Positions 10,257 to 11,870 of a DNA stretch of 16,701 bases are shown in pieces (the stretch's first letter is position 1; each line of letters starts with the position of its first letter). Source of the DNA: a virus. The notes below the pieces were generated by a model, which was not told where the DNA came from, did not search any database, and saw only the letters and a list, made by a program, of their open reading frames with translations. Location: UHGV virus genome UHGV-1600828; one strand, 5' to 3'. The translations under genes and the position numbers were made by a program.

Positions 10257-10811
10257 ATGCTTATTGGCTATGTACGCGTATCAACAAATGACCAGAACAC
10301 CGATCTACAACGTAATGCGTTGAACTGTGTAGGATGTGAACTGATTTTTGAAGACAAGATAAGCGGTACGAAGTCCGAAAGGCCCGGACTGAAAAAACTG
10401 CTCAGGACATTATCGGCAGGTGACACTCTGGTTGTCTGGAAGCTGGACAGGTTAGGGCGCAGTATGCGGCATCTTGTTACGCTGATAGAAGAGTTGCGCC
10501 AGCGTGGCGTGAATTTCCGAAGCCTGACTGACAGTATTGATACCAGTACCCCAATGGGCCGTTTCTTTTTTCATGTCATGGGTGCCCTGGCTGAAATGGA
10601 ACGAGAACTGATTGTTGAACGAACAAAAGCTGGACTGGAAGCTGCTCGCGCACAGGGACGAATTGGTGGACGTCGTCCCAAACTTACACCAGAACAATGG
10701 GCGCAGGCCGGGCGATTAATTGCATCAGGCGTTCCTCGCCAGAAGGTGGCGATCATCTATGATGTTGGTATATCGACACTGTATAAGAAGTTTCCGGTCG
10801 GAGATAAATGA
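10257..10811 (+). CDS. Site-specific DNA invertase, serine recombinase of the Hin/Gin/Pin/Cin family, 184 aa
   Basis: ATG at 10257 preceded by GGGAGA. N-terminus [18 protein letters not shown] with catalytic Ser in VRVSTNDQ, and a C-terminal helix-turn-helix region (…GRRPKLT…STLYKK…) match recalled Gin/Hin sequences. ORF-track start at 10221 adds 12 unlikely residues. Confidence 0.9.
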
Positions 10812-10850
10812 AACCGTAGCACGTCGTATGCAAGAAGATCGTGCTGCGGT
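10793..10850 (+). repeat. Imperfect direct repeat copy 1 (invertase 3' end plus downstream hairpin)
   Basis: …CCGGTCGG…GAAACCGTAGCACGTCGTATGCAAGAAGATCGTGCTGCGG. Contains a dyad CCGTAGCACG / CGTGCTGCGG. Similar to 11820-11870 at roughly 80% by eye, with indels. Confidence 0.55.
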
Positions 10851-10871
10851 TTATGCTTATCACTTAAAGAC

Positions 10872-11645
10872 TCAAAAATTAGGTGAGTAACGGACCGGGG
10901 ACATAGCTCCTTTTTTTCTTAATTCATCTGGTATTTTTTTTCCAAGATAAAGATTTGCTATTTCAGGTGGGGCTTCTCGACCTTCAAAACCATAGCGAGA
11001 ACTTTGTGTTGCCTCAAAGTCCGGATCCTCGTCCCAGTATTTCATCGTAGGGAAATTTTCACGTGTTGATTTGAGCCATTTATCAGCAATGAAAACCCCT
11101 CGAACGATCCCCCTTACAGTAGCAAGAATGACTTCTGCTTGGCTGGCGCGAGAGACATTAATGCGCCAGCTAAATCGAACCGCATCATAAAGCTCTGAAT
11201 CCTTTGCACTTCTGTTAACGGAAATCATTAATGCTTTATGATGAAATGTTATGGTTTCGGGTTGATATGTTGCTATCAACTCTTTGACATGCGCGGCGCC
11301 GAATTCATTGCTGCCAGCACCATTCATGATATTCGTTAACCCAGGGTAGGCATCAATAAGTGCTGCTTCAACTTCGTACGCCGTCTTTTCATCAGTCATT
11401 CCATGTCGATGGATGACATGGATAACTTCAAGTCCCGCTAATCTTATTTCTCTAATTTGCTTTAGCTTGTTGCTCAGTAACTCGTCATCATCAGTCGCTG
11501 CCACTTCACCGCGCATATGGGCAAATACGCGGTTACCTTTGCCTTTCCCTACATAGAAGGTGCTTCCGTCCCTCGGATCAATCAATCGGTATACATACCA
11601 GCCAAGGTGTTCAATTACTCCAGAAGGAAACTCAGTAATATCCAT
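10872..11645 (-). CDS. GIY-YIG nuclease-motif protein, ~257 aa
   Basis: Minus-strand ORF. N-terminus …[29 protein letters not shown]… fits the GIY…YIG…R…H pattern. ORF-track start at 11696 is a TTG; first ATG (MDITEF…) is at 11643-11645. Weak RBS, so start is uncertain. Confidence 0.6.
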
Positions 11646-11819
11646 TTTGCAATATCTATGAATTATTTGTGAGACGTATATTAATGAACATTGCAAGGGC
11701 TCACAACTAGTAGTGTTGAGAAATCCATCGGGAAAATGAGGCTAACCCTTTGAATTTACATAGCGCAAAAAGATACCTTTCCTCATAATGTGAGCTAATT
11801 TTATGTTTCGTTTGATGAT

Positions 11820-11870
11820 CGGGTCGGTCTCGAAACCCGTAGCCACGTCATATGCAAGAACGTGCTACGA
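11820..11870 (+). repeat. Imperfect direct repeat copy 2 (partner of 10793-10850), upstream of the GIY-YIG gene
   Basis: …CGGGTCGG…GAAACCCGTAGCCACGTCATATGCAAGAACGTGCTACGA, with the same dyad and central TATGCAAGAA as copy 1. Confidence 0.55.

Follow-up and report, generated by a model that had tools for sequence, protein, structure and literature searches.

Paralogous hairpins around a PD-T4-3 cassette in a prophage: probable recombination at a conserved, terminator-like joint

The locus studied here lies in the UHGV virus genome UHGV-1600828, of which a stretch of 16,701 nucleotides was analysed (the window). Downstream of a DNA invertase gene, a single leftward gene is enclosed by two imperfect copies of one hairpin. 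How did such a pair come about? That is, is it the trace of a cassette inserted or replaced at a fixed site just after the invertase, as the initial annotation of this DNA had proposed, or are both copies simply terminators, which it had offered as an alternative? The features concerned are the following (coordinates, strand, description and basis).

10257-10811, plus strand: pin, a Pin/Gin-type serine DNA invertase (Pfam Resolvase and HTH_7; pinE in an identical RefSeq record)
10810-10858, strand open: hairpin copy A, with A-tract GAAA (10810-10813), left arm CCGTAGCACG (10814-10823), loop (10824-10839), right arm CGTGCTGCGG (10840-10849) and U-rich tail TTTATGCTT (10850-10858) (covariance model match, fold, arm types compared across contexts)
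10872-11645, minus strand: PD-T4-3/CMoRE, a GIY-YIG type IV restriction endonuclease (PADLOC, Pfam, PDB)
11646-11825, minus strand: region 5' of the cargo gene that presumably holds the cassette promoter (conserved in every occurrence of the cassette)
11826-11835, plus strand: att core relic of tRNA-Ser(CGA) serU, GGTCTCGAAA, from the anticodon stem and loop (serU read from MG1655)
11832-11870, strand open: hairpin copy B, with left arm CCCGTAGCCACG (11836-11847), loop TCATATGCAAGAA (11848-11860) and right arm CGTGCTACGA (11861-11870) (covariance model, alignment with copy A, sub-threshold CssrB match)
11871-11990, strand open: conserved non-coding element (normally follows a single hairpin)
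12180-12569 and 12885-14351, plus strand: two accessory ORFs, hypothetical proteins, between the element and the prophage end
14745-14790, plus strand: prophage attR, a duplicated 3' part of tRNA-Thr thrW (exact 25-nt thrW 3' end at 14766-14790)

The invertase gene is the final rightward gene of the tail-fibre module, and the inverted crossover sites of the invertible segment are found at 8311-8330 and 10176-10195. The prophage integrase adjoins thrW at the opposite prophage end, 30 kb away. Given the thrW attR at 14745-14790, both hairpins and the cassette are therefore located inside one prophage; the same position rules out that copy B and the element stem from an older neighbouring prophage. 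The two accessory ORFs belong to no Pfam family and show only weak PADLOC matches (LmuA, WYL).

The product of the enclosed gene matches the PADLOC model PD-T4-3 (PDLC04031; E 2.4e-140, residues 1-256 of 257) and, over its full length, PDB entry 9U75 (E 3.7e-172, residues 1-257). The respective Pfam family is LEM-3_GIY-YIG (PF22945). Based on these matches, the cargo is PD-T4-3/CMoRE, a known anti-phage type IV restriction enzyme. Restriction by its orthologues depends on 5hmC or glucosyl-5hmC and provides protection against T-even phages (PMC12923530). A GIY-YIG homing endonuclease that moves its own gene was set aside on account of the PD-T4-3/CMoRE identity. It is unlikely since orthologues are reportedly modification-dependent restriction enzymes (PMC12923530) and since the flanks show recombinant junctions instead of a clean homing junction.

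The cassette is about 1 kb long, is transcribed leftward and holds PD-T4-3 as the only gene of the insert, in which neither a transposase nor an integrase nor terminal inverted repeats were found. Hairpin copy A is placed 22 nt past the stop codon of the cargo and is terminator-like. The 180-nt region upstream of the gene is conserved in seven loci (L007, L008, L009, L010, L031, L166 and L167). A consensus sigma-70 scan of the minus strand returned no site, and the cassette promoter is thus a putative one. To its left, the cassette neighbours pin (window, L009, L010), lambdoid tfa (L007, L166) or an ssrA att relic (L008, L167); to its right, we observe the element, a serU att site, an R-M system or IS1.

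Local alignment and a covariance model derived from homologous hairpins agree that two copies of one element are present. The best local alignment relates 10810-10848 (copy A) to 11832-11869 (copy B), where 34/39 aligned positions are identical and 5/39 differ, in addition to three indels. Its score of 43 is reached by 0/1000 dinucleotide shuffles (mean 16.5, sd 2.2, max 27). The covariance model assigns 54.3 bits to copy A (E 6e-14) and 59.7 bits to copy B (E 1e-15). A chance likeness of two unrelated GC-rich hairpins, for which nothing but the short match length speaks, is already refuted by these shuffles, by the covariance E-values (1e-14 to 1e-15) and by thousands of homologous copies. 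Copies A and B are diverged paralogues of one widespread stem-loop.

The initial annotation was right about the existence and the positions of the bracketing repeats as well as about the dyad and its TATGCAAGAA loop, while length and origin have to be corrected. First, the shared unit spans only about 39-45 nt instead of the 50-60 that had been given. Second, the repeats had been derived from the 3' end of the invertase gene, of which solely the TGA stop codon (10809-10811) overlaps the shared unit. The extra likeness to the left of this unit consists of GGTCGG, and the respective stretch of copy B is the serU relic; therefore, copy B does not derive from the invertase 3' end.

Both copies belong to a stem-loop family whose stem covaries and measures 10-12 bp, with a loop of 13 nt, GUAUGCAAGAA; the stem of copy A includes one U.G pair. 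While the stems are rewritten, Escherichia, Citrobacter, Kluyvera and Pantoea have the loop GUAUGCAAG in common. These cross-genus copies were found via the downstream element as the only anchor, such that the hairpin itself was not selected for. Changes on both sides of the stem are observed in 5/10 pairs (28 such cells), and 0/500 shuffles reach the observed covariation score. Stem cells are paired in 96% of the cases vs. 17-53% when partners are slid. Loop conservation across genera is not required of a plain terminator or a homology patch, which counts against the explanation we prefer below.

Copy A is located between the convergent pin and GIY-YIG genes. It folds with -25.8 kcal/mol on the plus strand (z -4.39) and with -16.3 kcal/mol on the minus strand; for the region of copy B, -23.2 kcal/mol are obtained on the minus strand. 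Because copy A is flanked by an A-tract and a U-tract, it most likely represents a bidirectional terminator that ends transcripts from pin and from PD-T4-3, which converge on it. The terminator alternative is thus partly right, i.e., with regard to the layout of copy A (A-tract, stem, U-rich tail). Of the features of intrinsic terminators, the GC-rich stem of at least 5 pairs is present (10 bp, mostly G-C), while the loop of 16 nt (copy A) or 13 nt (copy B) is not a short one of about 3-8 nt, and a consensus terminator scan for loops of 3-8 nt over 10600-12300 found 0 sites. A loop beyond canonical size and a scan that calls no terminator likewise count against our preferred explanation. The tracts of copy A are interrupted (UUUAUGCUU on the plus strand, UUUCAUUUAU on the minus strand). 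For copy B, a U-tract is absent on the plus strand and the minus strand offers only GGGUUUC / GGGUUUCGAG; clean U-tracts are found in other copies, e.g., UUUUUCUUUUUU on the minus strand of L007. Strand signals of the hairpin are mixed: wobble counts are 12 vs. 7, and by fold energy 31 cases speak for one strand and 34 for the opposite one. The 3' end of the Rfam CssrB model coincides with the hairpin, which is an indirect hint on transcript ends.

In enterobacterial temperate phages, the last late gene is tfa, stf or pin, and the hairpin is placed right behind its stop codon. In the usual state, a single hairpin is followed by about 65 conserved non-coding bases. Hairpin and element occur together at 14,878 places in 5,385/5,426 complete E. 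coli genomes. They are present in lambda, HK97, HK633, Stx phages and Qin as well as in a remnant at the lambda att site; defective prophages with the element include Qin and the ykgJ remnant. Beyond E. coli, the module is found in Citrobacter, Kluyvera, Pantoea and Shigella. In e14 of K-12, where pinE is followed by mcrA, there is no hairpin.

The initial annotation had suggested looking for an empty site in related prophages. Here, prophages without the GIY-YIG gene indeed show one hairpin right after the invertase stop codon, followed by the downstream sequence of copy B. This empty join (pin, single hairpin, element) is present in 573 complete E. coli genomes, in 22 viral contigs with full-length pin and in locus L002, and the occupied left join (pin, hairpin A, GIY-YIG gene) in 578 genomes. 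A second hairpin copy is only observed where cargo is present; a third one after tfa in L008, which would be a sign of an array, was sought and not found. The idea of cassette insertion or replacement is therefore correct insofar as the cassette is portable, homology ends at the hairpins, and both empty and occupied states exist. It fails for the remainder. The site is not a fixed one just after the invertase, since the hairpin is not invertase-specific and, in lambda, HK97, Stx phages and Qin, is preceded by tfa or stf. Nor is the pair a fresh insertion footprint, given diverged paralogues of which A is chimeric and B is fused to a serU att relic, and nothing in the insert is able to catalyse an insertion.

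Junctions at both hairpins were compared between loci. BLAST homology starts or stops inside the hairpins (query positions 610-614, 652 and 1633-1647). The right arm CTGCGG and the tail TTTATGC travel with the cassette, while the left arm tracks the upstream context. Judged by these arm types, copy A is a chimera and probably a crossover product, the left arm being of the pin type and the right arm of the cassette type. Where the cassette ends on its right, the serU relic is fused to the 5' base of hairpin B. The corresponding junction of L007 holds 19/19 identical serU bases, and in L009 and L166 the cassette continues into a complete serU 3' half (serU positions 30-90). At the hairpin base, the serU junctions read GGTCTCGAAA followed by CCCGTAG in the window and GGACCGGTCTCGAAAACCG followed by TAG in L007 and L031; the ssrA junction reads TGGTGGAGCTGGCGGGAGTTGAA followed by ACCGCAG in L031, L057, L093, L008 and L167. 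The fusion of two different att cores at the same hairpin base could point to an integrase and is a further observation counting against our preferred explanation. A functional attP composed of the L031 ssrA block and the hairpin was rejected, given that the other end of the L007 prophage shows the block followed by CCCGCG, with the hairpin absent.

We consider it probable (roughly 60%) that the paralogous hairpins around the PD-T4-3 cassette result from recombination at a conserved, terminator-like portable joint. Observed were the distribution, both the empty and the occupied state, the various settings of the cassette, the two arm types joined in copy A, the covarying stem and what the cargo encodes; the following pathway and order of events are inferred. 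Phages and prophages would recombine with the conserved hairpin as portable joint, for which short diverged homology, or microhomology at the hairpin base, would be sufficient. Copy A would have been formed by a crossover that combined a pin-linked left arm with the cassette-borne right arm and its U-rich tail. The serU relic of 10-19 nt would mark the former right end of the cassette beside the attP of a serU-integrating phage, and copy B would have retained the normal downstream element. It is the chimeric copy A together with the serU relic at copy B that argues for an origin of the pair by recombination at the hairpin joint. The bracketing of PD-T4-3, a known defence gene, is thus real but an ordinary outcome of mosaicism among phages.

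The element downstream of the hairpin comprises a core of about 65 nt (CTGGCTGG...CGATAGTGCGAGTATTGAATGA...CCAAC...GATTTTGC) and a lambda-like extension to about 11990; it shows 86% identity to the lambda b region over 154 nt, and the lambda copy is located at 24153-24330. Its closing stem GGCTGG/CCAGCC exhibits compensatory changes, among them GC-to-AU double changes, and the 32 G.U vs. 8 A.C cells favour the plus strand. A protein-coding element (a 'capsid protein' call by PGAP, a minus-strand MQKIRKI ORF or a mini-ORF starting from the loop ATG) was rejected because major variants differ by a 1-nt indel, the start codon is missing in HK97-type copies and the length of the mini-ORF varies. 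Tentatively, hairpin and 65-nt element might form a so far undescribed, specifically recognised cis-acting module of enterobacterial temperate phages, for instance a late-operon-end signal that stops or processes antiterminated transcripts or a site at whose 5' base integrases or other recombinases exchange accessory or defence cassettes. In both cases, its role would exceed that of an ordinary terminator whose sequence incidentally offers homology.

We regard it as rather unlikely that hairpin and element serve above all as a functional RNA, be it a structured 3'-UTR or an sRNA-like part of late transcripts, for which copies are retained and whose position at cargo boundaries is a by-product of a constant place at the operon end. 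Such a role would agree with the GUAUGCAAG loop that is kept across genera despite rewritten stems, with the double changes and the plus-strand G.U excess of the closing stem, and with the Shigella sRNA CssrB of Rfam, which runs in late-gene direction, ends at the hairpin and is matched in full length in L018 (151.6 bits). On the other hand, the strand evidence from the hairpin is mixed, RNAalifold lends weak support to the element as a whole (-12.6 and -16.4 kcal/mol), and the second copy is restricted to loci with cargo. Furthermore, an RNA function is compatible with recombination at the joint. With regard to CssrB (RF02799, chromosome-encoded Shigella sRNA B), the 3'-terminal hairpin of the model is the present hairpin, whereas the 5' 140 nt upstream of it are absent in the window. 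For the two window copies, the model aligns through its 3' hairpin only and yields 24.5 and 19.6 bits (gathering score 76), and the whole window has no gathering-level match in Rfam. A text search for CssrB returned no paper on this sRNA.

An unlikely origin of the serU and ssrA junctions is a tyrosine integrase that uses the 5' base of the hairpin (GAAACCGYAG, which resembles a tRNA-type att core) as pseudo-att. A serU-type or ssrA-type attP or att would then have recombined with a hairpin already in place. Integrases of this type that target tRNA genes reportedly exchange strands at the 3' edges of anticodon loop and T-loop, and the breaks observed here coincide with these two edges, the anticodon loop being 7 nt long. 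Two unrelated att cores are joined to the same window at the hairpin base, and both exist as intact att sites (serU in L009 and L166, ssrA in L007 and L136). However, the partners share a microhomology of 7-9 nt (GAA[A/C]CCG), enough for RecA-independent deletion, and inverted repeats promote such deletions at their own base. The overlap regions would match at only 4-5/7 positions, and an integrase would account for the left junction of copy B but not for the chimeric copy A.

Site-specific or transpositional insertion into the hairpin with target-site duplication, as for a transposon or an integron cassette, is highly improbable and largely refuted. It would yield one hairpin at empty and two at occupied sites, as observed, and the duplicated unit is exactly the hairpin. 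Target-site duplication implies near-identical repeats, but the copies differ as given above (34/39 identities, three indels) and combine arms from different lineages. From locus to locus, pin on one side and the element on the other are 95-100% conserved. In copy A, the right arm represents a separate, cassette-linked lineage, and the cassette ends on its right in a serU att relic and not in the end of a mobile element. Because the copies are diverged and the insert, which encodes PD-T4-3 only, has no recombinase, the pair is not a transposition footprint. The adjacent Pin was also rejected as acting on the hairpin: it uses contiguous 26-bp sites (two inverted 12-bp half-sites, 2-bp core), of which the hairpin flanks share only AAACC and GGTTT, about 37 bp apart.

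The locus can be related to known systems of accessory genes. Morons are independent accessory transcription units between phage genes, first described for HK97 and HK022. The cassette is moron-like in being a single accessory gene that opposes the late operon at the late-operon/att boundary, with a terminator-like hairpin 3' of it and an upstream region that travels along; its presence and absence in collinear phages (578 and 573 genomes, respectively) also fits. Unlike for morons, both flanks are the same conserved phage element and not an unrelated private terminator, the right end is a tRNA att relic, and no promoter is called by the consensus scan.

P2/P4 hotspots and the lambda b region also feature differing defence cargo per phage at one fixed position; here, PD-T4-3, a type II R-M system, McrBC-like genes and, in lambda, the PtuAB-like ea59/ea31 were seen. 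P2/P4 hotspots are bounded by core genes, whereas the present position is bounded by a non-coding hairpin module, of which cargo may have one copy on either side. Integron attC sites are likewise imperfect palindromes of about 40-60 bp between single cargo genes (promoterless or promoter-bearing) with empty and occupied states. In contrast to integrons, there is no integron integrase, attI or R''/L''-L'/R' boxes, usually one cassette and no array is found, and the hairpin copies are not products of site-specific excision and integration. The neighbouring recombinase is a serine invertase (Resolvase and HTH_7).

Red/Rad52-type phage recombinases generate mosaics even where the diverged homology is as short as about 30 bp (PMC3945230). 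The linker exchange by relaxed Rad52-like recombination described by De Paepe et al. (2014, PMC3945230) resembles our locus, i.e., breakpoints are at a short patch common to unrelated flanks, chimeric hairpins look like crossover products, and the element is common to functional phages and defective prophages. It differs in that the present patch goes beyond residual homology, being a folded stem-loop whose stem covaries and whose loop is conserved, and in the att-core fusions, which hint at microhomology or integrase events instead of homologous exchange. With about 37 bp at 80-90% identity, the hairpin is at the lower limit for homologous recombination, an observation that counts against our preferred explanation.

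Within the literature on CssrB, on AgvB with tail fibre and on lambdoid defence hotspots, we found no description of the element, and the stem-loop appears undescribed so far. It provides a sequence landmark for the loading and swapping of accessory genes in lambdoid, SfV-like and e14-like E. coli prophages, and many genes at this landmark are anti-phage defences. About 99% of complete E. coli genomes contain this landmark, which lacks an annotation or is wrongly labelled as a 'capsid protein' pseudogene; it could serve for automatic cargo finding at prophage ends. If loop and element prove specifically functional, they would constitute a new regulatory or recombination element in phages, among them lambda, that are considered fully mapped. 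Lambda also provides a second, independent case of bracketing: its ea47 gene is flanked by two hairpins, while the lambda-like tfa in L017 is found with one.

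The GIY-YIG gene is bracketed by two stem-loops whose 10-12-bp arms enclose TCGTATGCAAGAA, i.e., copy A (10810-10858) after the invertase gene pin and copy B (11832-11870) beyond the GIY-YIG gene. In the best local alignment (10810-10848 vs. 11832-11869), 34/39 positions are identical, with three indels. The alignment score of 43 exceeds that of all 1000 dinucleotide shuffles (16.5±2.2, maximum 27), such that the bracketing repeat reported in the initial annotation is real. Its suggested length of 50-60 bp and its origin in the invertase 3' end were not borne out: the common unit comprises ~39-45 nt, and the invertase gene contributes the stop codon only. 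Based on a covariance model made from homologues, copies A and B score 54.3 and 59.7 bits, respectively. The features of the window are:

Left part: tail and baseplate genes
8311-8330 and 10176-10195: Pin crossover sites (20-nt inverted repeat, 95% complementary)
10257-10811: pin invertase, right of the invertible tail-fibre segment
10824-10839 and 11848-11860: conserved hairpin loop (also in the compared loci L146, L158, L145 and L143)
10872-11645, minus strand: GIY-YIG gene
11871-11990: element, a conserved non-coding sequence 3' of copy B
12180-12569 and 12885-14351: two cargo ORFs without Pfam family, between element and attR
14745-14790: attR, a 46-nt copy of the thrW 3' part

The window, to which one part of E. 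coli 0H26 (NZ_CP081782.1) is identical, covers the right half of a prophage that has a tail module of the Mu/SfV type and uses the tRNA-Thr gene thrW as integration site. The Pin crossover sites flank a 1.8-kb invertible segment, which contains alternative genes for tail-fibre tip and assembly. Next to attR lies a CP4-6-like island (with ykfI/yafW, among others); the prophage sits between thrW and this island (L131 22160-22235), and thus two elements are found in tandem at one tRNA. The two ORFs before attR may form an uncharacterised defence or accessory pair; the larger one has weak PADLOC matches to LmuA and WYL (E about 0.004).

The product of the GIY-YIG gene was identified as PD-T4-3, alias CMoRE (PADLOC E 2e-140; PDB 9U75 E 4e-172, full length). 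For its orthologues, activity as type IV restriction enzymes against 5hmC and glucosyl-5hmC DNA is reported (PMC12923530), which makes a self-mobilising homing endonuclease unlikely.

As the initial annotation had proposed to check, prophages without the GIY-YIG gene carry a single hairpin after the invertase. THO-006 (L002) shows the invertase 3' end, one hairpin and then the sequence found after copy B in the window. This contiguous junction occurs in 573 complete genomes and, after a full-length pin, in 22 viral contigs, while the left junction of the occupied state (pin, hairpin A, GIY-YIG 3' end) is found in 578 genomes. The cassette is located behind pin (window, L009, L010), behind a lambdoid tfa without pin (L007, L166), or behind an acyltransferase gene and an ssrA att relic (L008, L167), in prophages integrated at thrW, serU, ssrA and proL. 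Its right neighbour varies as well (element, serU att site, type II R-M system, or IS1), and BLAST homology starts or stops inside the hairpins. The cassette is portable, as these arrangements show.

Phage lambda provides a second, independent example, i.e., ea47 bracketed by a diverged hairpin after tfa (NC_001416 22564-22613; L004 2065-2114) and a canonical hairpin preceding it (24153-24202; L004 3654-3703). The respective empty site is seen in L017, where a lambda-like tfa has one hairpin plus the element behind it. In further two-copy loci, the cargo consists of PD-T4-3 plus a methyltransferase and a restriction enzyme (L031, L057, L093) or of unknown genes (L052, L105).

Elsewhere, other restriction systems occupy the position after pin or hairpin, which appears to be a restriction/defence hotspot. 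In e14 of MG1655 (L132 2740-3680), mcrA follows pin and no hairpin is present there. PEC145 (L137 3915-6988) has a McrBC-like pair after pin or hairpin, and P13-6 and L031 a type II R-M system (L007 4739-7415). Lambda ea59 and ea31 match PtuA and PtuB-like (PDC-M01) defence models.

The hairpin is not confined to this locus; together with the element it forms a module common to many phages and prophages. Hairpin plus post-copy-B sequence match lambda between ea47 and ea31 with 86% identity over 154 nt, and the module is also found in HK97 (between tfa and sib/attP), HK633, many Stx phages and other lambdoid prophages. A 108-nt query identified 14,878 places in 5,385/5,426 complete E. coli genomes, among them a site in Qin of K-12 (between ynfT and the ydfJ junction), a remnant located at lambda's att site and a copy between ykgJ and ecpE that is nearly universal. 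We consider this widespread, unannotated module to be of main significance. The element spans ~65 nt, with lambda-type copies being longer:

L004 (lambda), 3704-3830: element
L005 (HK97), 2545-2600: element
L134, 3034-3110: element of the nearly universal E. coli copy
L134, 2388-3110, and L140 (MG1655 302000-305500): yagU, tfa remnant, ykgJ (minus strand), hairpin plus element, ecpE

Because a tfa remnant (Rfam IS009) adjoins it, the ykgJ-ecpE copy is taken as a relic of an ancient prophage end that has become fixed. The whole locus from yagU to ecpE resembles the right end of an ancient lambdoid prophage, now fixed, in which ykgJ takes the cargo position.

The MG1655 copies of the module carry no annotation, the element has no Rfam family, and no description of the conserved loop and 65-nt element was found in the literature searched. 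In Rfam, the hairpin is represented solely by the CssrB 3' end, which the window matches with scores below threshold; a full-length CssrB match, running in late-gene direction, was obtained in one viral contig. PGAP/RefSeq at times calls a 'capsid protein' pseudogene on element copies (window 11850-11936), which is probably spurious given that the major element variants differ by a 1-nt indel.

How did the pair arise? The initial annotation had read the repeats as a footprint of cassette insertion or replacement. This holds insofar as the hairpin marks the cassette boundary and empty sites have one copy, but the two copies are not a fresh duplication. The right arm CGTGCTGCGG and tail TTTATGCTTATCAC of copy A are constant wherever the cassette is found, while its left arm tracks the upstream context, i.e., CCGTAGCACG after pin and CCGCAGACACG after tfa or the ssrA relic. 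Copy A of the window, which contains a U.G pair, would thus be a crossover product. The left flank of copy B is GGTCTCGAAA; its counterpart in L007 and L031, GGACCGGTCTCGAAAACCG, is 19/19 identical to serU, and in L009 and L166 a complete serU 3' half, i.e., a real att site, follows the cassette. Relic and intact site together suggest that the cassette was once located beside attP in a serU-integrating phage. Later, its att core would have been fused with the 5' base of a hairpin-plus-element derived from the end of another phage.

A parallel to the serU anticodon-loop relic before copy B is the 23-nt ssrA (tmRNA) 3' end, an att identity block, fused at the T-loop edge to the same hairpin 5' base:

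L031, 13168-13190: ssrA-hairpin junction
L057, 5405-5427: ssrA-hairpin junction
L093, 9783-9805: ssrA-hairpin junction
L008, about 3480-3500: ssrA-hairpin junction
L167, about 2990-3010: ssrA-hairpin junction

At the intact ssrA att sites of L007 and L136 the hairpin is absent. Since GAA[A/C]CCG is common to all junction partners, the junctions may have formed by microhomology deletion at the base of the inverted repeat or, equally in line with this motif, by integrase secondary-site recombination. Phage Rad52-type recombinases make mosaics at short diverged homologies (PMC3945230), which the chimeric hairpins would fit. Overall, the mechanism around this known defence gene seems to be ordinary phage mosaicism, with a conserved, terminator-like sequence serving as joint.

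With regard to function, copy A is located between the convergent pin and PD-T4-3 genes and combines an A-tract with a strong stem (-25.8 kcal/mol, z -4.4) and, on either strand, a U-rich tail. We read it as a predicted bidirectional terminator; a terminator consensus scan did not call it, as its loop is too long. Copy B, located upstream of the presumed cassette promoter, would shield the cassette from read-through in leftward direction or terminate rightward transcripts.

Stem pairing was assessed over 47 distinct hairpins, where 96.4% of stem cells are paired and 5/10 stem pairs are changed on both sides (28 cells). The observed covariation score was reached in 0/500 shuffles, and slid partners reduce pairing to 17-53% of cells. 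When a search was anchored on nothing but the downstream element, copies were retrieved from Citrobacter, Kluyvera, Pantoea and Shigella. Across genera, the stems are fully rewritten while the loop keeps GUAUGCAAG, a retention that is unexpected for a simple terminator. The closing stem of the element (GGCTGG/CCAGCC) shows compensatory double changes, with a G.U cell surplus on the plus strand. Loop and 65-nt element are conserved well beyond the needs of a terminator or homology patch.

A small minus-strand ORF (11801-11944), also present in lambda and a hypothetical protein in some records, begins MQKIRKIDNSWKSFNTRTIGSS, has a GGAGG ~13 nt before its start and extends through element and hairpin B. 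Since HK97-type copies are without start codon, this ORF probably does not account for the conservation. Finally, the loop AUGCAAGAA (11852-11860) is complementary to UUUUUUGCAU (11938-11948) with 9 pairs, one of them G.U. The latter site lies ~75 nt downstream of the loop in lambda-type copies and is missing from HK97-type copies; the two could form a long-range pairing.
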